Program-made: the position numbers and the translations under genes
The notes under the pieces: model-generated
What the model was told of the DNA's origin: nothing
Seen by the model: the letters and a program-made list of their open reading frames with translations, nothing else
The model's database searches: none
Shown here: one piece after another, positions 6,128-20,376 of the stretch
Numbering within the stretch: position 1 is the first letter of the stretch
Layout: each line of letters begins with the position of its first letter
Source: an uncultured Gemmatimonadaceae bacterium
Lineage (GTDB): Bacteria > Gemmatimonadota > Gemmatimonadetes > Gemmatimonadales > Gemmatimonadaceae
Direction of reading: 5' to 3'
Length of the DNA stretch: 64,000 nucleotides
Assembly (NCBI GenBank): GCA_963829055.1
Contig: CAWHHI010000020.1
Location: forward strand, 640,001 to 704,000

Positions 6128-7611
<1,484 letters not shown>

Positions 7612-7669
7612 CAATCCTCATCGTTAGGTAAGTGAATCATGCAGAGTGCTATCAGCTATCAGCTATCAG

Positions 7670-8637
7670 CTACTGACGGCTGAGACTCCGGCTCCGAGCA
7701 TCCGCTGCCACGACGAACAACGCCGGGCCATTCGCGTCCGCATCGACTGGCAGCGGCGTGTAACGCACGCCGAGTGAAGCCGGCGGCGGACAGCCACTCG
7801 GTCATCTGCTCGGACGAAAAACCCTGCCACACGTGGCCCATCTGCTGGCGGTACTCCTCGCGGTCGTGCGGCATCATGTCGACCACGATCAGGCGTCCGC
7901 CCGGCCGTAGCACACGCGCCGCCTCGCCTAACGCCTTCTGCGGCTCGGCAATGTAGTGCAGCACGAGCGACATGACGGCCGCGTCCATCTGACCGGGCTC
8001 GATCGGCAGCGCCTCCAGCTCGCCCTGCCTGATCTCGACGTTGCTCAAGCCATCGAGCCGGCGGCGGGCGGCGGCGAGCATTGCCGCCGACGCGTCGACG
8101 GCGATGACGCGCTGCACGAACGGCGCGAGCGTCGCCGTGAGCGGGCCGGTGCCGCAACCCAGGTCGGCGATGAGCCAGTCGGGGTCGACCAGCGCGAGCA
8201 TGCCGGCCAGCGGCGATCGCTCGCCGAACAGCTCGCCGCGCACTGCGTCCCACTGTCCCGCGACGGACGAGAAGAACTCCTGCGAGCGCGACCGGCGTTC
8301 GCTCAACACGCCGTCCACGCGGCGCGAGTCCTGGCGCCCGGCGGGACTCGCGGCTACCTGGTCACGCACGATCGTCCAGAGCTGGCGCGCGGCCGAATCG
8401 AGCGCCGTCTCCAGTCGGTAGTAGCGGCTGGTGCCATCGGCTCGGGACGCCACCCACCCGTCGTCGCTCAGGATCTTGAGGTGGCGGCTCACCGTGGATC
8501 TGCGGGAGCTGCAGCACCGAACAGAGCTCGGTGACCGTGAGCTCGCGATCCTCCAGCACGTGAAGCAGCCGGCTCCGTGTTGGGTCGGAGAGCGCGCTGA
8601 GCTGGTCGAAGACGCCGGGGCGTAGAGTAGTATTCAT
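7670..8637 (-). CDS. sahR: ArsR-HTH + class I SAM-methyltransferase-domain regulator (SahR-like), frameshifted
   Basis: ALSDPTRSRLL...VTELCSVLQLPQ/TVSRHLKIL (ArsR HTH) followed by ADLGCGTG (SAM motif I); directly upstream of ahcY, the usual SahR context. Confidence 0.85.
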
Positions 8638-8683
8638 CCGTATATCCGGATGTAACGCTACAACCATCGGACCCGAGAGTCAA
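8635..8683 (-). promoter_or_regulatory. Sigma70-type promoter with overlapping palindromic operator for sahR-ahcY
   Basis: Minus strand TTGACT (8683-8678), 17 nt, TAGCGT (8660-8655); palindrome CATCCG-TATATC-CGGATG (8635-8652) spans the expected start site and the ATG. Confidence 0.65.
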
Positions 8684-8894: not shown

Positions 8895-9770
8895 ATGATT
8901 CGACGGAGGGTCGTGCTCCTTCCGCTGCGCGCAGCACGTCTCGGTCGCCTCGCGCTGCTGCTCCTCGGCAGCGCGATGGCGTGCGAATCCGCACCCGCCT
9001 CGAACGCGGATTCCGCCGTCGCACAGGCGCCGAAGGACACGGGCGCAGTCACGGACAAGTACGTGCCCAGCGTCGACGAGGGCCTTGGCGCGTCGATCGC
9101 GATCCTGATCGACAACTCCGGTTCGATGAAGAAAGCGGCCGAGGGCGACAGCCGCCGAAGTACGTCGTCGCGCGCGAGGCGCTCGAAGCAATGCTGGCGT
9201 CGACCGACTCGTTCGTGGCGCGAGCAGCCGGACTTCCCGATCAACGTCGGCCTGTACCGGTTCTCGAGTCCGCGTGACGGCGATGGTGCCGATCAGGCGC
9301 TACGACCGCGGCCGCGCCTCAAGTCGCGGCGCTCGACATCGATGCCCGAACCCGACGGCGGCACCGCGATCGGAAGGGCGATGGACGTCGCGCGTGACGA
9401 CCTCTATCGCGCCGGGACATTCCGGAAGTACATCCTTGTCGTCACCGACGGCGAGAACACGGACGGCGTGTCGCCTCGCCGCATCGCGCAAGAGATCAAC
9501 CGGCGCAGTGAAGGCGCGGTGCGCATGTACTTCGTCGCGTTCGACGTCGACGCCGAGCGGTTCGCGCTTCGTGCGCGACGTGCGAGGCGAGGTGGTCGGC
9601 GCCCGCAACGGCTGACGCGCTCCGCGCACGACTCGACGACGATCTACCGCGGGAAGATTCTTTCCGAAGCAGTGGATGCCGGCGAGACCTCAGCGCGGCT
9701 TGCCGCCGATTCGGCCTCGCGCGATTCGGCCAAGCCTCCGACGACTCCGAGGAAGGACACACGACCATGA
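8895..9770 (+). CDS. vWA-domain lipoprotein (intact MIDAS), internal compensating indels
   Basis: Lipobox-like LLLLGSAMAC; ILIDNSGSM (DxSxS), GGTAIG (T), ILVVTDGENT (D). Confidence 0.8.
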   Translation: MIRRRVVLLPLRAARLGRLALLLLGSAMACESAPASNADSAVAQAPKDTGAVTDKYVPSVDEGLGASIAILIDNSGSMKKAAEGDSRRSTSSRARRSKQCWRRPTRSWREQPDFPINVGLYRFSSPRDGDGADQALRPRPRLKSRRSTSMPEPDGGTAIGRAMDVARDDLYRAGTFRKYILVVTDGENTDGVSPRRIAQEINRRSEGAVRMYFVAFDVDAERFALRARRARRGGRRPQRLTRSAHDSTTIYRGKILSEAVDAGETSARLAADSASRDSAKPPTTPRKDTRP

Positions 9771-10511
9771 TCATGGGAAAATTCTTCCAGCGCGTTCCGC
9801 GCGCAGCTCAACAAGATCGCGAACATCTTCTTCGAGGCTGACCCGATCGCGGTGATGCAGCTCGAGGTGGATCAGGCGACCGAGCGTCTCAAGGAAGGAC
9901 GGAAGGGACTCGAGATGTATCGCGGCCTCGTGGAGACCGTCGCGCGTCAGGTCGCGGCCGGCAAGTCGAACATCGTCCAGCTCGAGGCGCAGATCAAAGC
10001 GCATCTCAAGGCAGGCAATCGCGACGTGGCCGGCCAGCTCGCGATTCAGCTGCAGAAGGCGCAGACGGAGCTCGCGCGAACAACGAGCAGCAGCTCGAGA
10101 TGCACGAGCAGGCCTATCAGAACAACCTGCTCAAGATTCAGAAGGCGAACAAAGACATCGTGAAGGTGACGCGACAAGATCCGGCAGTACGACGCGGAGC
10201 TGAAGATGAGCGCGGCGGAGGCCGAGATCGCGCAGATCTCCGAGTCGTTCGACATGAACGTGACGACGGACTTCGGCGAGATCGAGTCACGTGATCCAGC
10301 AGAAGATCGACACGAACCGCGGCCGCGCGCGCGTGGCGACCGACATGTCGTCGAAGGGCATCGAGTCGATCAAGGCCGAGGAAGCGGCCGAGAAGGCGAT
10401 GGCCGAGGATCTTCTCTCGAAGTACGAGGTGCAGCTCGGTCTCAAGTCGCCGGAAACGACGCCGGTGGCGGATACCGTCAAGAGTCTCGGACCGCGGTGG
10501 AAAACAAATAG
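9767..10511 (+). CDS. PspA/IM30/Vipp1 (ESCRT-III superfamily) protein, frameshifted
   Basis: Stitched: amphipathic N-terminus MGKFFSAFRAQLNKIA, EADPIAVMQLEVDQ, long coiled coil, AHLKAGNRDVAGQLAIQL, C-terminal EKAMAEDLL; ATGA overlap with the vWA stop. Confidence 0.75.
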
Positions 10512-10618
10512 GGACTAGGGACTGGGGCTGGGGCCAGTGACTCGGCGAGGATGCTAGCTCGCAGCGAAGCTCCCGCCGAGTCCCTAGTCCCCAGTCCCGA
10601 GTCCCAGCAACCAGTCCT
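10510..10618. repeat. Long imperfect hairpin with heptamer-repeat arms (GGGACTA/G ... CAGTCCC) inside the operon
   Basis: GGGACTAGGGACTGGGG..GACTCGGCG pairs with CGCCGAGTCCCTAGTCCCCAGTCCC. Confidence 0.65.
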
Positions 10619-10638
10619 CTAGCTCCACGTACCCAACC

Positions 10639-12381
10639 ATGGCAAACGGCAGACCGAAACCGGCGTTCTTCCTCGTGATGTTCCTCGTCGTCGCGGGGCT
10701 GATCTACTACGGCGTCTCGCGCTTCGGCGGCACGAAGCCGGCCTCGGCGGCAGCGACAGCTCGAGCCATCTCGCCGACGGATCTCGCGAACAGAAGGGCG
10801 GGCCCGAGGCGCCTGACGCGAGCAGCGTCACGACGGTCAAGGAGTACAGCTACGTCGCGAGCGCCAAGCTGCCCGAGGTGAAGGGCACGTCGGCCTACAC
10901 GCCGATGGTCGACAACACCGTGCGCATGGCGCTCAACGTGTGGGCGGGATGGGCGCCGGTGATCCACGCCAACAACGGCTTCAAGGCCGGCAAGGTCTGG
11001 AAGACGCCGAGCGGCAAGACGTTCAAGCTCGAGCTCGTGCTGATCGACGACCCGATCGCCATGCGCGACGCCTACGCGTCGGGCAAGGTGCACATCGGGT
11101 GGGCGACGCTCGACATGATACCGCTGTTCGTCGAGCAGTTGCGAAAGGACTCGCGCACGATGCCGCGCGTCTACCAGCAGATCGACTGGTCGAACGGCGG
11201 CGACGGCATCGTGTGTCGCGCAGAACGTCAAGTCGGTGACCGACCTGCGCGGCAAGACGGTCGTGCTCGCGCAGAACTCGCCGTCGCACTTCTTCCTGCT
11301 CAACACGCTCATCAGCGGCGGCCTGCAGCCGGCGACGTGCAGTACAAGTTCACGCAGGACGCGTTCCAGGCGGCCGCGGCGTTCAACGCCGACAAGTCCG
11401 TGGCGTGCGCCGTGAGCTGGGCGCCGGACATCTACAACCTCGCCGACGCGAGCGGGCAACAAGATGCTCGTGAACACGCAGACGGCGAACAAGCTCATCG
11501 CCGACGTGTGGTTCGCGCGCGCCGACTTCGCGAAGGACAACCGCGCGATCATCGAAGGGCTCGTCGCGCGGGATCTTCGAGGCGATGGAGACGCTGAAGA
11601 GCGCAGGACGGGAAGGCGACAGGTCGCGAAGCTGATGGCCGCCGGGCTACTCCATTCCGGAGAAGGACGCGCTCGGCATGCTCGGCGACGCGCACTCGAC
11701 GAACTACGCCGAGAATCGCGAGTTCTTCCTCAACCAGAACAACCCGACGAACTTCGAGCGCACGTGGAACACGGCGTACTTCCTCTACCGGAAGATCGGC
11801 AGCGTGTCGGGGAATCCGGTGCCGTTCGACCAGGTGATGGACTTCTCGGTCATCCAGAAGCTCGGCGAGCGAGCCGGTCTACGCGAACTCAGAAGAACGA
11901 GTATCAGGTGCAGTTCGTGCCGACGTCGGCGACGGCGGTGCAGGCCGAGAGCAACGAGATTCTCACGAAGAGCATCGTCATCCAGTTCTACCCGAACTCC
12001 GACGACATCGAGAAGACGATCGAGAAGACGGTGGACGGAAAGACGGTGCAGGAGGCGTACGATCCGAACGCGCCGTTCGTGGTCGAGGAGGCGGGCAAGC
12101 TCGCCGGACAGTTCGGCGCGGCGCGCATCGTCATCGAGGGCCACACCGACGCGTCGATGAAGAACTCGGGCACCGTCACGGCGGCCGACGTGCAGGAGCT
12201 CTCGCTCCGGCGCGCGAACGCGGTGAAGCAGGCGCTCATTCGCAAGTTCCCGTCGCTGCAGCCCAATCAGTTCACCACGGCGGGCCGCGGGTGGGATCGG
12301 CCGGCCGATCCGAGCGACCCGAACAACAACGCGAAGAACCGGCGCGTCGAGATCAAGGTCTATCCGCTGGAGTCGAAGTAG
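10639..12381 (+). CDS. Membrane-anchored NMT1/TauA-type substrate-binding protein fused to a C-terminal OmpA-like peptidoglycan-binding domain, frameshifted
   Basis: N-terminal TM FFLVMFLVVAGLIYY; ALNVWAGWAP, DWSNGGDGIV, VSWAPD (type-2 PBP); IEGHTD...LSLRRANAVK...GRG...NRRVEI (OmpA_C). Confidence 0.85.
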
Positions 12382-12388
12382 GTCCGCG

Positions 12389-13271
12389 GTGACTGAATCG
12401 GTGACGACCCAGACACCGACGGCGGCCGCGCCGCCGTCGGTGCAGGCCGCGCCGCAGTCGCTCATGCGGCGGCTGTTCACGCTGCGCGAATCCCGCCGCC
12501 GCTCGTCAAGCGCGCAGTCGGGATCGCCGGCGTCGGCCTCGGCGTGTTCGTCTGGTTCCTGCTCACGCTCGGCTCCACGCCCGAGACACGCATCGTCTCG
12601 CCGGTCGTGCTGCCGAGCCCGGGGAAGTGCTCCGCAGCATCCCGACGCTGTTCACGCGAGCGCGGACTCGTCGCGAGCACGGCGGCGACGCTCGCGTCGC
12701 GTCCTCAGCGGCTTCGGGCTGGCGATCCTCGTCGGCGTGCCGTTAGGCATTCTCGCCGGCGCGTACCGCATCTTCGACGCGTTCACCGGACCGATCTCGC
12801 TGTTCTGCGCAACATTCCGGTCGCCGTGCTGATCCCGCTCACGATTCTGTGGTTCGGCATCGACGAGACGCAGAAGACGATGTTCATCTTCATCGCCACG
12901 GCGCCGTTCGTGTTCTTCGACGCGGCGCGCGCCGTGGCCGGCGTGCACGACCGCTACGTCGAGACGGCGCAGACGTTAGGCGCGTCGCCGCGCGCAGGTC
13001 GTGACGAAGGTGCTCATCCCGCTCGCGATGCCCGACATCTACTACAGCCTGCGCAGCCTGTTCGGTCTCGCGTTCGGCTACATCATGCTCGCCGAGCTCG
13101 TGAACGCGGAGCACGGGCTGGGCTACCTGCTGATGATCGAGCCAGCGACGCGGGCTCACCGAGCACATCTTCGCGATCCTCATCGTGATCGGGCTGCTCG
13201 CGTACGGGATCGACCGGCTGCTGTACTGGTTCCAGCGCGGGCTGTTCCCGTATCGGACCGAAGACGACTGA
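12389..13271 (+). CDS. ABC transporter permease, NitT/TauT/SsuC family, frameshifted
   Basis: VLPSP, GVPLGILAG, RNIPVAVLIPLTILWFGIDE, ETAQTLGAS (EAA loop), AELVNAEHGLG. Confidence 0.85.
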
Positions 13272-13278
13272 CACGACC

Positions 13279-14153
13279 GTGACGCACGAACGACAGCCAG
13301 CGCGCGAGCGCCGGCGCCACCGCCGGCCGCGGCGCCGCCGGCTCGCGCCGCCGGTCGTCCTGTTCGACCACGTGACGAAGACCTACGACAACGGCTTCAC
13401 GGCGATCAAGGACGTGTCGTTCGTCGTCGAGGACATTCCGAACGAAGATGGAGTTCATCACCATCCTCGGTCCGTCGGGCTGCGGGAAGTCGACGGTGCT
13501 GCGACTCATCGCGGGACTGACGCCGCAGTATCCGGCGACGTCGGGCACGGTGCTCGTCGTCGGGCAAGCCGGTGCTCGGTCCCGGGCGCCGATCGCGGCA
13601 TGGTCTTTCAGGATTACTCGTCGTTCGACAATCGCACGGTCGAGGACAACGTCGCGTTCGGGCTCGAGTGCCGCGGTGTTGCCGCCGAGCGAGCGGCGCG
13701 AGCGCGCGCGCGAGTGGATCAGCAAGGTCGGCCTCGACGTCGATCGCGATGCGGCGAAGTATCCGCACCAGCTCTCGGGCGGCATGCGTCAGCGCGTCGC
13801 CATCGCGCGGACGCTCATCCTGAATCCGCGCATCATCCTGATGGACGAGCCGTTCGGCGCGCTCGATCCGTCGCACGCGGCTCAGCATGCAGGACATGCT
13901 CGTGTCGCTGTCGCGCGAGGCGCAGGCGACGGTCTTCTTCGTCACGCACTCCATCGAGGAAGCCGTCTACCTCGGCGACCGGACGTACGTCGTTCTCGTC
14001 GTGCCCGGGAACGATTCTCAAGGAGCTGCGCGGTGCCGCCGCCGGACTTCCCGGCGAAGCGAGATGCAGCGGCAGCCCGAGTTCATGGAGATCGTGTTCG
14101 AGATTCGCGACATGGTGGAGTCGCTCGAGATCGTCGACTCGCGCGGGGGATGA
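13279..14153 (+). CDS. ABC transporter ATP-binding protein, NitT/TauT family, frameshifted
   Basis: Walker [50 protein letters not shown]. Confidence 0.9.
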
Positions 14154-14197
14154 GTGAGCCCGCGCGTGGCACACCGGACCGGCGGAGCTCGTCGCTG

Positions 14198-15121
14198 ATG
14201 GCGCCTAACGACTCGTCCGGCGCCAGACTCGGCGCCTACGTCAAGCACGCGTTCCTCTACCCCTGGAACCTGCTGTTCTTCCTCGGCGGCGCGCGCGCTG
14301 GCGGCAATGTCGCCGCAGGCCCGACGCATTCCTGCCGATCATCGGCGGACTCGAGCTCGCGTACCTCACGGGCCTGCTCGTCGATCCCACGCTTCCGCAC
14401 CGCGATCGACGCGAAGATCGCGGCGAAGGCGCGCGAGGCGAGCGCGCGACGCGCCGCGCGTCGAGCCGTCGAGCCAGCAGTCGCTCGAGCGCATTCTCGA
14501 GTCGCTGCCGGCGCCGGCGCTTCGCGCGCTTCCTGCTGCTGCGCCAGCGCTGCTTCGAGATGCGCTCCATCGCGTCGCGGCATTCGCGGCCAGGCGGACC
14601 GGCACGCGCGACTCGGCCGAGATCGATTCGGACGCCGGCGCTCGATCGACTGCTCTATCTGTTCCTGCGGCTGCTCGTGTCGCAGAACGGGCTCGATCGC
14701 TTTCTGCGCAGCACGAGCGAGAAGGAGCTCGACGCGCAAGCTCGACGGACATGCGCACGCGCTTCGAGGCGGCGAAGACCGGCCGGCGACGAACGCGTGA
14801 CGCAACTCGCTGCAGGACAGCGTCGCGGACGCCGAGCTGCGGCTCGACAACTATCGGAAGGCGACGAAGGACGCGGAGTTCGTGGCGATCGAGCTCGATC
14901 GCATCGAGACGAAGATCCAGGCGCTCATCGAGATGGGTGTGAGCCGCCAGGACCCCGAGACTACCTGAGCCATCAGGTGACGGCGGCGGCGGAGAGCATG
15001 CAGCACACGGAGGCCGCGGTGAACCAGCTGCAGCATTTGACCGGCCTCGCCGACTCAGATCGACGAGCCACCGGCGATTCTCGAGGCGACCATTGGCGGA
15101 CTGGTGGCGCGTGACCGCTGA
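14198..15121 (+). CDS. Two-TM membrane protein with long alpha-helical/coiled-coil cytoplasmic domain, frameshifted
   Basis: Stitched: [52 protein letters not shown]...[16 protein letters not shown]; start could also be ATG at 14150. Confidence 0.65.
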
Positions 15122-16958
15122 GTCGATCGCCGCGCACGCGCCGCGTTCAGGACGCCGCGCGCGTCGAAGCGCGGAGCTGCCGGCGTGGTATCCGCCGTGG
15201 GCGCGAGTCGCTCGCCGAGCAGTACTTCTCCGGCACGGCGTCGGTGTTCGTGCTGCACGGCAACACGTACGACCTCGTTCCGCTCGTCGACCCTGACGCG
15301 GACGGCGCGGCGGACTACGGGACGGTTCCCGATTTTCTGGCCGAGCAGCTGTTCGGCCGCTGGGATCTCGTGCTGCACTACGATCTCGGTCGCGGACTGC
15401 GCGTCGTTCGCCGGGCGCAGTGAGAAACGACTCAAGGAGATGGTCGCGCTGGCGACGCGCCGCATCGGCGATCTGTCGACGGTGAAGAACGATCCGGCGA
15501 TCGTGATCGGGCTGCTCGATCTGCTCGTGCGCGACAACGTGATGGCGGCGCCGGAGAAGCGGCTCAAGATCGCGATTCTGATCAACCAGGCGTCGTTTCT
15601 GTTCCCCGCCGGCGAGCCCGGTCGAACGAGCTTCGCCGGCGTCCGGCATGCTCGTGACGCTGCTCAACTGGGCGACGAGCACGCACGTGAAGCATCTCGA
15701 GATGGCGTGCGTGCTCATCGACGAGCGGCGGAGTGACGTGAGCGATCGCGTGACGGGCAATCCGCACGTCGCGACGGTCGAGGTGCCGCTGCCCGTCGGA
15801 GGACGAGCGCCTCGCGTTCCTGCGCGACGTCGCGACTCGCGGCGCGAACGGATCGGGCGTCGCCGATTGGTCGCGCGCGTCGGACTACACGCGTGGAGCA
15901 GCTCGCGACGCTCAGCGCCGGCATGTCGCTCAACGATCTGCGGCACGCTGGTCGCGTGCGGCGACACGCGGCGGGCCGCGTCTCGACTCGCAGCGTGTTC
16001 CGCGATCTCAAGAAGCGCCTGCTCGAACGCCAGGGACAGGGGCTGCTGGAGTTCATCGAGCCGAAGTGGAAGCTCGACACCGTCATCGGCCACGAGGCGG
16101 CGAAGCAGCGGCTGCGCGACGACGCGGCGTTGCTCGCGCGCGGCGCGCTGGACTGCGTGCCGATGGGCTATCTGCTCTGCGGACCGGTCGGAACCGGCAA
16201 GTCGTTTCTCGCGATGTGTGCGGCCGGCGAGATCGGCATCCCGTGCGTGATGCTCAAGAACTTCCGCTCGAAGTACGTCGGCGAGACGGAGGGCAATCTC
16301 GAGCGCGTGCTGTCGGTGCTCCGCGCAATGGGCCCGGTGATGGTGGTCATCGACGAGGCCGACGCGGCGTTAGGCGACCGCGATACCGAGGGTGACTCCG
16401 GGACGTCGAGCCGCGTGTTCGGCATGATCGCGACGCAGATGGGCGACACGCGTTATCGCGGCAAGATCCTGTGGATGCTGCTCACCGCGCGGCCGGATCT
16501 GCTGCCGATCGACATCAAGCGCCAGGGCCGCGCCGAGGTGCACATTCCGCTGTTCTATCCGTTCGGAGGACGACGAGCTGCGGAAGATGTTCGTCATGCT
16601 CGCGAAGAAGCTCGGGACGACGCTGCGCGAGGAGGACGTGCCGCCGGTGCTCCGCGGAGCACAAGGGCATGCTGTCGGGCGCGGACATCGAGGGCATCGT
16701 GGCGCGCGCGTGGCGGCGGTCGCTGCTCGTCGGGCGCGAAGGTCGGTCACGCCCGAAGCGCTGGCCGAGGTGATCGCGCAGTTCCTTCCGTCGACGCAGG
16801 GGCTGGAGAAGGAGCTGCAGGAGACGGCGGCGATCATCGAGTGTACGGATCGCGAGTTTCTGCCGCCGGCGATCGTGGCCGAGGTGGAGCGGGCTGGTGG
16901 GCGCGGGCCGCTGCAGCAGCGCCTAACGGCGCTCAAGGAGATGGTGGCGCGGCTCTAG
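15111..16958 (+). CDS. Classic-clade AAA+ ATPase with degenerate N-terminal domain, frameshifted
   Basis: Walker A GPVGTGKS, pore loop SKYVGETE, Walker B VIDEAD, SRH-like RPDLLPIDIKRQGRAE; N-terminal VFVLHGNTYD...LHYDLGRG without a Walker A. Confidence 0.85.
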
Positions 16959-17194
16959 TCGTGTGCGACGGGGCTGGGCCGGCGTCATCCCGGCGTGCTG
17001 GCCAGTCACTCAGCACGTCAGCACTGAGTATGAGGTGTCAGGCGTCAGTCTCCGAGCCCAGTAACCAGTCCGCCGCAACCCAGCGCGACCCAAGCCGGCG
17101 GATACGGGGCCTGATGCCTGACACCTGCTGCTGAGCAGTCGCTGACGCACTTGGTACTGGCCATGCCGCCGCCGGATGCTGTCCCGTTAGCAGT

Positions 17195-19935
17195 TTATTC
17201 GCCCGCAACGCGATGATGGGGTCGACTCGCGCCGCCCGTCCGTGTCGGTACGACGGCCGCCAGCAGCGCGACGCCGAACAGCACCGCGGCCGCAAGCGCG
17301 AACGCCAGCGGGTCGCGTGCCGACGTCTGGAACAGCAGCGGCGCCACCGTCGGACCGGCGGCGATCGCGATCGCGAAGCCGATCACCGCCCCGACGATCG
17401 CCACGCGCACCGCGCCGTCCGATCACCATGCGGCCGATGTCGCGCGTCCCTGCGCCTAGCGCCACGCGGATGCCGAGCTCGCGGATGCCGCCGCGAGACA
17501 TCGTACGCGAGCACGCTGTAGAGGCCTAACGCCGCGACGACGACCGCCAGCAGGCCGAACACGCCGAACGCCGTGGCACCCAGCTGCCACGCGCGCATCT
17601 GCGGGTTCACCAGCGTCGTCGAGCGGCTGCACGTCGATGAACGGCGCGTCCGGGACGCGCGTCTGCAGTTCGCGCCGCAGCGACTTCCACCGCCTTGCCG
17701 CGATCACCGACCGGTCGCACGAACAGCACGCGACTGTGCGACCAGGCTGGGCGCCTGGTCGAGCGGCACGAAGAACTGCACGGCCGGGTCCTCGAGGAGC
17801 GCGGAAGCGGCGGGAATTCTCCGACGACGCCGACGATCTGGGCGCACGGCATGGTGTCGCCGCCGACCTTCATGCAGTGACCGATCGCTTCCTCGTTAGG
17901 CCACCAGAGCTCGGCCAGCGTCTTGTTCACGACCACCACGCGCGCCGACGTGCCCCGGTCGGCCTCGGTGAAGCCGCGCCCGCGCAGAATCGCGTATCCC
18001 CATCGTCCGGAAGAAGTCGCTCGCGACGGCGTTGAAGTACGGACCGCCTGCGCGCGTGAGCGGCAGCGAGTCTCGGCCGGGCACCTTCACCTCCTCGGCC
18101 CAGAGCGTAGAGAACGGCAGACCGCCGGCGACGCGCCGCATGCTCGACGCCCGGCGCCGCCCGCGCCGCAGTCGAGCAGCCGCGTGTACAGCGCGTCGAT
18201 CTCCGACGTCGCGCGATGCGCATGCCGGACGTGCGCACCTTGACGACCAAGCACACGATCAGTCTCCAGACCTAACGGCAGCGCCTGAATGCGCTCGCAG
18301 GCTGCGCACGAAGAGCACGGCGCCCGACGAGAAACACGACCGTCAGCGCCGCCTGCGTGACGAGGAGCAGCACGTCCGCGTGCGCGAACGCACCGGGCCG
18401 CCGCTCTGGCGCCGGCGCGCAGCGCGTCCGAAACCGCAGGGCGACTCGACTGCAGGGCCGGGAAGCAGACCGCTCACGATCCCCGCCAGCGACCGCGGCG
18501 ATCGCCGTGTAGGCCACGAGACGCAGATCGACGGCGCGGCCGGCGGCGAGTCGGACGTGAAGAGCACGCGCCGGACGAGACCACCGCCCCACACGGTCAC
18601 GATGATCGCGGCGATACCGGCCGCGAGCGCGAGCAGCACCGTCTCGCACACGAGCTGCCTGACGAGTCGCGACCGCGATCGATGCCGAGCGCGATTCGCA
18701 CCGCGACCTCACGCTGGCGCGCGATACCGCGCGCGAGCTGCAGGTTCGCGACGTTGGCGCATGCGATGAGCAGCACGAGGAGCGATACCGCGCCGAGCAG
18801 GACGGCGACCTTCGCGTCGGTGCTGTCCGCGCGGGCCTCGTCGCGGCAGCACCGAGACGAGCATGCACGCTCGGGCTCAGCGTCGCGATCTCACGAGGCG
18901 ACTCGCCGTCGCGAACGATCGCCCGCGCGCAGCGCCGCCGTCGCGATCGCCGATGCCCGCTCGGGCGTCACGCCGGCCGTGAGACGCGCGCGATGATCTG
19001 AAGCCAGTAGCCTGACGACTGCGCAACCATCTCTGCGTACTCCTCCGCGCGTGACGTTGGCCGTGAGCGGCACCCAGGCGTCGACGACTTCGCTCGTCAC
19101 GCCGGTGAAGCCCTGCGGCGCGACGCCGACCACGGTGTATGGTCGTCGCCGATCGTGAGCGTACGACCGATCGCCGACCGGTCTGCCCTCGAACTGTCGC
19201 TGCCAGAATCCGTAGCCGAGGACGAGCACTCGCGGCGCGGTCGGGTTGCCATCCTCTTCGGGGAGGAAGAAGCGGCCGACCGCGGGCCGCACGCCGAGCG
19301 TCGTGAAGTAGTTCGCGGAGACGCGCATGCCGCGCAGCTCATGCGCGTCGCGCCCGCGACCGAATCGCCATGTCGTCGGGCGAATACGCCGCGACCTGCT
19401 CGAACGCCGACGCGGCCGATCGCATGTCGCGATAGATCGGGTACGACAGGACGCGCTGCTGGCGCGTCGTTGCCGTCGACGCGTCGGCCCAACTCGCGGA
19501 CACTGACGACGCGTCGCGGATCGGTGACGTGCGCCGGCGCGCGCAGCAGCAGGCGGTCGATCGACGCCGAACATCGTGACGTTCGCGCCGATGCCTAACG
19601 CCAGCACGAGCACGACGACGGCGGCGAACCCGGGCTGCGATGCGGAGCGAGCGCGCGGAGTACGCGAGGTCCTGGCCGAGCGTCTCCCACCACGCCTGTC
19701 GTCGCTCGCGCGTCAGCCGCCGCTGGTCGACGCGCGCGATCTCGGCTCGTGCCTCGGCGACGTCGCCGAACTCGCGCGCCGCAATGTCACGGGCGACGTC
19801 GGCTGGCGTGCCTCGCGCGACGAGCTCGGCGACGCGGCTCTCGAGGTGGAAGCGGATCTCGTCGTCGACGTCGCGCTGAACGCGGCGGCCGGACTCCGGG
19901 AGGTTGAGCAGGCGGCGAATGCCGCTCACGCGCAT
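17195..19935 (-). CDS. Duplicated MacB/FtsX-type ABC permease (ADOP family), heavily frameshifted
   Basis: [11 protein letters not shown] prefix, [52 protein letters not shown]. Confidence 0.85.
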
Positions 19936-19944
19936 TCTCGCGGC

Positions 19945-20302
19945 TCATGCTGGTGCCCTCCCTTCGGCCGACTCGAGGATGCGGAACACCGCTTCGACGT
20001 AGCGCGTCCAGCTCGCGGCCTTGGTCTGGAGCTGACGGCGTGCCGGCGGCGGTCAGCTGATAGTAGCGCGCGCGCCGGTTGTTCTCGGAGAGTCCCCACT
20101 CGCTCTCGATGAGGCCGTTCTCCTCGAGCCGGTGGAGTGCGAGGTAGAGCGCGCGGTCCTCGACGAGGATGACGTCTTCGCTCGTCTCGCGGATCCAGCG
20201 GGCGACGGCGTAGCCGTGGCGCGGGCCCCAGGCGAGGGTGCGGAGGACGAGGAGGTCCAGCGTCCCCTGCAGGAGCATCGGTTCGGCGGCGGCGTTCGGC
20301 AT
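19945..20302 (-). CDS. PadR family transcriptional regulator
   Basis: LLQGTLDLLVLRTL...RHGYAV...ALYLALHRLE...EWGLSENNRRARYYQLT; directly upstream of the permease. Confidence 0.9.
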
Positions 20303-20376
20303 CGCGTGCTTCCCCGGAGTGGCTCCGGGGAAGGTTGTCATGGGGACGGACCTTCGCAAGTGCTGGCTGGGAGCCC

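Follow-up and report, generated by a model that had tools for sequence, protein, structure and literature searches.

Do some bacteria use a dedicated AAA+ ATPase to remodel polymers of PspA, which belongs to the ESCRT-III family? The question is raised by seven consecutive genes at positions 8895 to 16958 of a 64,000-nucleotide stretch (hereafter the window) from an uncultured Gemmatimonadaceae bacterium (GCA_963829055.1, contig CAWHHI010000020.1, positions 640,001 to 704,000), which code for a von Willebrand factor A (vWA) domain protein, a PspA-like protein, a periplasmic binding protein fused to an OmpA-like domain (PBP-OmpA), an ATP-binding cassette (ABC) permease and its ATPase, a coiled-coil protein with two transmembrane segments (the 2-TM protein), and an AAA+ ATPase. 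The cluster is real and strongly conserved across bacteria, with PspA, the 2-TM protein, PBP-OmpA, and the AAA+ ATPase as its conserved core. The portion of a 2025 review that bears on this describes a Vps4-like ATPase as seemingly absent from bacteria and the regulation of PspA polymerization as open (PMC7619361). We put at about even the chance that the ATPase of this cluster remodels PspA polymers on the membrane, where the 2-TM protein would anchor them at a site tethered to the wall.

PspA, the AAA+ ATPase, and the 2-TM protein

The gene at 9767 to 10511 (+) codes for a divergent PspA/IM30 protein. Intact orthologues all exceed the PspA_IM30 cut-off (PF04012; 40.9, 43.1, and 34.3 bits against 33.9), a 110-amino-acid piece from the window matches at an E value of 5e-5, and the operon PspA profile aligns with the Vipp1 structure 8qhv over residues 2 to 207 (E 1.6e-6), bearing out the ESCRT-III-type identity proposed in an earlier note made on this DNA. 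The protein ends in a conserved K-x-[LIM]-G-P tail, and the pattern K-x-[LIM]-G-[PSTQG] is kept in 45 of 48 orthologues (K235 in 45, G238 in 47). The operon is a second PspA system, as a canonical PspA (161 bits) is kept elsewhere in the genome, on contig C19 (L155:5824-7160, G000:C19), preceded by a small gene that we presume to be CesT/YbjN-like. Pfam searches of the operon genes identified no PspF, PspB, or PspC, as the earlier note had it, and the arrangement is thus not that of a proteobacterial pspFABC operon; PspC was also not found in the genome as a whole (86% complete), the search for PspF and PspB being confined to the operon.

The ATPase (15111 to 16958, +) has about 600 residues and combines a degenerate N-terminal AAA domain with an active C-terminal one. 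The window translation contains the SKYVGETE pore loop and the second region of homology (TARPDLLPIDIKRQGR) that the earlier note reported, and conservation among orthologues argues for an intact classic-clade, substrate-threading domain: Walker A, the Walker B DEAD motif, and the arginine fingers (KRQGR) are invariant in 70 of 70 sequences, all of which also have an aromatic pore-loop residue (Y, W, or F). The N-terminal domain, which that note overlooked while correctly recognizing the active one, has an FxLHGNxxD P-loop lacking the Walker A lysine and a Walker-B-like strand ending in D/E-x-A without the catalytic glutamate.

The structural model of the ATPase (predicted local distance difference test [pLDDT] score, 91) indicates a double-ring enzyme of the unfoldase type rather than a Vps4. 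Both rings match those of Rix7, p97, Cdc48, and NVL over about 600 columns, with the alpha/beta N-terminal half aligning to the first AAA ring of Rix7 and p97, and Foldseek matches to tandem AAA structures have E values of 1e-20 and template modeling (TM) scores of about 0.5 to 0.6 at 16 to 20% identity. The best sequence matches in the PDB are VAT, Cdc48, p97, and Rix7; Pfam finds no MIT domain, and the family models for CDC48 (61.5 bits) and CdvC (38.6 bits) both score far below their cut-offs. The likeness to Vps4 that the earlier note had drawn is therefore not sustained, and we reject Vps4 orthology given the tandem AAA domains, the lack of MIT, and a CdvC score below that for CDC48. Searches for phage-borne copies of the ATPase confirmed none among 21 IMG/VR pattern matches and found none in 50,697 phage records at an E value of 1e-20. 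We also note a sister clade of double-AAA ATPases (about 39% identity; L016:2569-4320, L017; six genomes) that have no PspA or 2-TM partner.

The 2-TM protein (14198 to 15121, +) belongs to a large family, which comprises 1,900 clusters when grouped at 50% identity. Its model (pLDDT 83) is helical throughout and includes two hydrophobic helices at the N terminus as well as a long hairpin, and the protein has a conserved acidic E-P-P-x-I-L tail in which P278 is invariant (64 of 64). This component is labeled 'SIG+TM+Snf7' by Ravi et al., and we could not confirm the label: hidden Markov model, profile-profile, and fold searches gave no support for a Snf7 link (PF03357/ESCRT-III fold), and there is no ESCRT-III chain among the 50 VIA matches listed. 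A match to the 'PspA' structure 2pms was discarded, as the abbreviation there denotes pneumococcal surface protein A, whose coiled coil is unrelated. The nearest named ESM cluster is mycobacterial PspM (Rv2743c; score 0.88, 186 of 256 features shared), a value below 0.9 that makes it a lead only, and the PspM model (PF25587) matched no 2-TM protein in five genomes, with the Corynebacterium control itself falling below the cut-off. The sections consulted of a study of PspM report that it binds PspA and holds a PspA species at the membrane (10.64898/2026.09.09.750162), and because PspM is a membrane partner of PspA, it is plausible by analogy that the 2-TM protein is a PspA anchor.

Occurrence and composition of the cluster

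The seven genes lie on the plus strand in the order given by the earlier note, as established by tblastn with intact orthologues from one related locus (L013), which placed vWA at 8982-9689, PspA at 9792-10494, PBP-OmpA at 10639-12378, the permease at 12493-13268, the ABC ATPase at 13351-14129, the 2-TM protein at 14320-15097, and the AAA+ ATPase at 15174-16955. Pfam matches to the window fragments include VWA (26.8 bits, cut-off 23.8), OmpA (48.9), ABC_tran (89.1), and AAA (77.8), and the intact copies likewise support vWA, PspA, OmpA, ABC, and AAA assignments. The window is a GC-rich assembly with many indels, and all seven genes carry one or more frameshifts. Comparison with two relatives (L014 and L077) gives 8 to 11 nontriplet gaps per kb in the housekeeping gene ahcY and 10 to 26 in the six core genes, rates that include true divergence. 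Because ahcY is similarly broken and the operon genes are intact in relatives assembled from short reads, the frame breaks are most likely long-read or assembly noise, and we reject a pseudogene reading.

The genome survey covered a single sample of 350 further Gemmatimonadota genomes. The 2-TM query matched 18, 17 of them strongly (the one weak match, with stops, was set aside); the PspA profile matched the same 17 genomes, the PBP-OmpA profile these plus one distant copy, and the ATPase profile the same 17 at high score together with seven lower-scoring genomes without this PspA. The predicted co-occurrence of the genes was thus observed, and it recurs in metagenomes, for which we kept the best 80 of 507 confirmed stretches, so the sample leans toward close relatives; the alignments exclude frameshifted or duplicate loci, partial matches, and sequences nearly identical to another (90%). 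Among the 13 long metagenome loci (6 kb or more on either side), PspA is present in 10 and the 2-TM protein, PBP-OmpA, permease, and ABC ATPase in nine each. Of the 55 metagenome loci whose upstream sequence extends for 900 bp or more, 52 have a gene for the 2-TM protein (32 loci) or PspA (20 loci) directly upstream of the ATPase. Four gene orders occur: [vWA]-PspA-PBP-permease-ABC-2TM-AAA; PspA-AAA-small-PBP-permease-ABC-2TM; 2TM-AAA-PspA-PBP; and PspA-AAA alone, with PspA-ATPase pairs lacking other core genes nearby at four loci (L147, L151, L152, and L153).

The small gene in the second order codes for a protein of about 100 amino acids with the pattern W-x-D..ADG-x-V-x-x-x-EL and no Pfam match, and lies directly 3' of the ATPase gene in 50 of the 80 metagenome loci (e.g., L086:11776-12066). 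Neither this genome nor the Gemmatimonadota loci yielded a copy of the gene, whose product is a candidate adaptor. Look-alike clusters of the 2-TM and the small protein are labeled, in a few records, as Acidobacteriota, Verrucomicrobiota, Planctomycetota, and Myxococcota.

The PBP-OmpA gene (10639 to 12381, +) codes for a TauA/SsuA/NMT1-like periplasmic binding protein that is anchored at its N terminus and joined to an OmpA-like domain for peptidoglycan binding. GHxD and L-S-x-x-R-A are each kept by 95% or more of 43 orthologues. The gene is followed by genes for a NitT/TauT-class permease (12389 to 13271, +; BPD_transp_1 at 70 bits in an orthologue) and ABC ATPase (13279 to 14157, +; Pfam and NCBIfam matches). 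The best importer-family matches are to taurine, sulfonate, and urea-carboxylase-associated systems, all below the NCBIfam equivalog cut-offs (TIGR03427, 70 against 334 bits; TauC, 114 against 342; TauB, 204 against 357). The ABC module, which the earlier note counted as part of the operon, is present here and dispensable in one genus: the permease is found in just six of the 17 core-positive genomes and in none of the 11 of genus g29, nine of which have nothing above 30 bits with the permease profile, while PBP-OmpA is in all 17, and the conserved core is therefore reduced to four genes. The g29 loci (L064 to L074) have the order 2TM-AAA-PspA-PBP/OmpA, lack genes for the permease, the ABC ATPase, and vWA, and are flanked by housekeeping genes; the permease absence in all 11 may stem from a single loss event. 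The g29 PBP/OmpA proteins also have an extra helical insert in the OmpA domain.

The vWA gene (8895 to 9770, +) is an accessory gene of the cluster and not the defining component that the earlier note made of it. It is absent beside the operon in four genomes with the six-gene core (G001, G014, G218, and G211) and was not found elsewhere in them (the control genome was positive), and it is present in six of the 80 metagenome loci and one of the 13 long ones. The metal-ion-dependent adhesion site described by that note is intact in the window translation (IDNSGS..GGT..VTDG), and the vWA domain is supported by Pfam. The lipoprotein assignment fares less well: there is a possible lipobox here, and the cysteine is present in L021 and L029, but there is none in the N-terminal 40 amino acids of L013, L062, and L063. 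The N-terminal hydrophobic segment (signal or anchor) predicts an exported, periplasmic protein, and since this places vWA and the ATPase in different compartments, a MoxR-style adaptor role is unlikely; being also accessory, vWA was rejected as an adaptor of the ATPase.

Upstream of the operon, window positions 6128-8667 contain what we take to be an ArsR-methyltransferase fusion and ahcY, divergently transcribed, and as the same neighbors are present at L014 and L077, members of the genus have either acquired or lost the vWA gene here. Downstream and convergent (17187-20359, minus strand) are presumably a PadR-like gene and then a MacB/FtsX-type ABC permease gene. An intergenic hairpin at 10511-10605 (no strand assigned; fold z score, -7.6), between pspA and the PBP-OmpA gene, is a genome-wide repeat resembling repetitive extragenic palindromes, with 79 matches to its 18-mer arm (up to two mismatches), and might stabilize the upstream mRNA. 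A 31-nucleotide inverted repeat at 17024-17135, between the ATPase gene and the convergent gene, is possibly a shared terminator or repeat element. Promoter and terminator scans performed no better than on shuffled sequence, and no Rfam riboswitch reached the gathering score in the window or in eight related loci.

A possible mechanism and its alternatives

Judged by N-terminal hydrophobic segments, PspA, the ATPase, and the coiled coil of the 2-TM protein are predicted to be cytoplasmic, with PBP-OmpA and vWA in the periplasm. PspA would polymerize at the inner membrane on its cytoplasmic side, as PspA and Vipp1 proteins do, and be anchored or nucleated by the 2-TM protein, as it is by PspM in mycobacteria. 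The ATPase hexamer would engage the C-terminal tails of PspA, the 2-TM protein, or both with its degenerate first ring and thread those conserved tails with its active second ring, unfolding and recycling membrane-bound PspA polymers and so filling the role of Vps4 while being a different enzyme. The membrane-anchored PBP-OmpA would tie the site to peptidoglycan and provide a periplasmic signal, with the ABC module and vWA as optional add-ons facing the periplasm. We favor this reading because of the PspA identity, the intact ATPase motifs and unfoldase-like model, the shared 17 genomes, the adjacency of the genes, the PspA-ATPase pairs that stand apart from the other core genes, and the conserved tails of both candidate substrates; Ravi et al. 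drew the same inference. A fuller version seems possible rather than probable to us: a bacterial ESCRT-III recycler that evolved independently of Vps4, in which a p97-like double ring takes hold of a dedicated PspA and of its membrane anchor by their tails, is switched by a peptidoglycan-tethered sensor of ligand or wall damage even where there is no transporter, and uses the ~100-amino-acid protein as an adaptor in many lineages.

Several observations weigh against PspA remodeling by the ATPase. The canonical PspA on contig C19 has a similar K-Q-I-G tail, so the tail is no proof of ATPase binding, and the PspA at L152 lacks the motif and yet adjoins the ATPase. Eleven of the 17 positive genomes are from one genus (the 17 span five genera), and the profiles drew in part on these genomes, so the co-occurrence is overstated. 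The ATPase has no PspA within 10 kb in three of the 13 long metagenome loci, two of which (L115 and L116) have the ATPase alone and nest within the operon clade of a tree containing only this family, and its sister clade (six genomes plus one weaker match) is without this PspA type. The part of Ravi et al. concerned (Table S3; PMC11237479) shows PspA and TM-Snf7 contexts without an ATPase (AKJ06548.1 and CBH24266.1), and in the sections consulted of another study, Synechocystis PspA remodels by its own ATP hydrolysis (PMC11746142), so a separate motor is not generally required.

An alternative that we judge unlikely, while ranking it above the others, is that the ATPase is a p97-like extractor of the 2-TM protein or another membrane component, with PspA released or recruited downstream and not threaded. 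At 32 of 55 loci the 2-TM gene comes immediately before the ATPase gene, frequently with an overlap, the 2-TM tail contains the invariant proline, the fold is nearest to p97/Cdc48/Rix7, and L134 retains the ATPase, 2-TM protein, and transporter with no PspA within 10 kb; the four PspA-ATPase pairs, however, have no 2-TM gene within 3.6 to 10 kb downstream, and a bare ATPase-PspA dyad occurs in Clostridium in the material seen from Ravi et al. (PMC11237479). Still less probable is a signaling device in which PspA binds the ATPase and inhibits or activates it, as it does PspF, and PBP-OmpA signals damage to the wall or the presence of a periplasmic ligand, the polymers not being substrates. Retention of PBP-OmpA in the 11 genomes without a cognate permease, nine of them without any above 30 bits, fits a sensor, and regulation of PspF by PspA is a precedent in the part of the review dealing with it (PMC7619361), but Pfam identifies only AAA in the ATPase and no DNA-binding or sigma-54-contacting domain, the aromatic pore loop is of the unfoldase type, and no regulator gene is among the flanking reading frames inspected.

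That the cluster is centered on solute import, with PspA and the ATPase helping to assemble an anchored NitT/TauT importer or protecting the membrane during uptake, is improbable and slightly more so than signaling. Its permease and ABC ATPase genes are in nine of the 13 long metagenome loci, always after the binding protein, and the best family matches are to importers, albeit below cut-off; against this, only six of the 17 four-gene-core genomes have the permease, minimal forms have no transporter, and the riboswitch search was negative at all nine loci. We give very little credence to an antiphage or antitoxin membrane defense system, for which the patchy spread (17 of 350 genomes), a peptidoglycan anchor with an ATPase reminiscent of Zorya, and weak PADLOC matches (ZorB, 24 bits; IetA, 50 bits) could be cited. 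Those matches span only generic OmpA and AAA domains, the inspected flanks are housekeeping genes (ahcY, dnaJ/hrcA, mutS2, and topoisomerase-like), and the proteins are highly conserved.

Relation to known systems

The layout is already in print, as the earlier note had guessed it might be: the consulted portions of Ravi et al. 2024 (PMC11237479, Table S3, OGG56892.1) contain the six core genes, identically ordered, with the same domains and, in silico, a membrane-remodeling interpretation. The window matches that operon in its six genes, their order, and the inactive-N/active-C double AAA, and differs in that vWA leads the operon; 'vWA' gives no match in the text and supplement consulted, where it may be hidden within 'X(s)', and the ABC-less four-gene form, the four orders, and the small post-ATPase gene were likewise not found there. 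New here are the Gemmatimonadota co-occurrence, the ABC-less four-gene core, the gene orders, and the small gene. No experimental study of the operon was found in the literature searched, which mostly excludes subscription journals, consistent with the earlier note. The value of the family is thus in testability over discovery: it is the most direct candidate answer to the question left by the review passage (PMC7619361), testable with two purified proteins. The four-gene form is the smallest version for reconstitution and, because it keeps PBP-OmpA, assigns this protein to the remodeling core and not to transport alone.

The pairing of PspA with a two-TM partner resembles the mycobacterial ClgR-PspA-PspM (Rv2743c) operon, which, in contrast, has neither an ATPase nor a transporter. 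MoxR and RavA-ViaA are AAA-vWA pairs, and here too an AAA+ gene shares an operon with a vWA gene with an intact adhesion site, but the ATPase belongs to the PF00004 classic clade (CDC48/PAN best), and the vWA protein is predicted to occupy a different compartment and is missing from many loci. The ATPase shares a tandem AAA fold with p97, Cdc48, VAT, and Rix7, differing in its lack of an N-domain and of the Walker A lysine and Walker B glutamate in the first ring. As in the ESCRT-III/Vps4 systems of eukaryotes and the archaeal CdvB/CdvC, a gene of the ESCRT-III family adjoins one for a classic-clade AAA+ protein with an aromatic pore loop, and C-terminal tails are conserved; unlike Vps4 and CdvC, this ATPase has two AAA domains, no MIT domain, and a lower score for CdvC (38.6 bits) than for CDC48 (61.5 bits), and it is an analogue at best.

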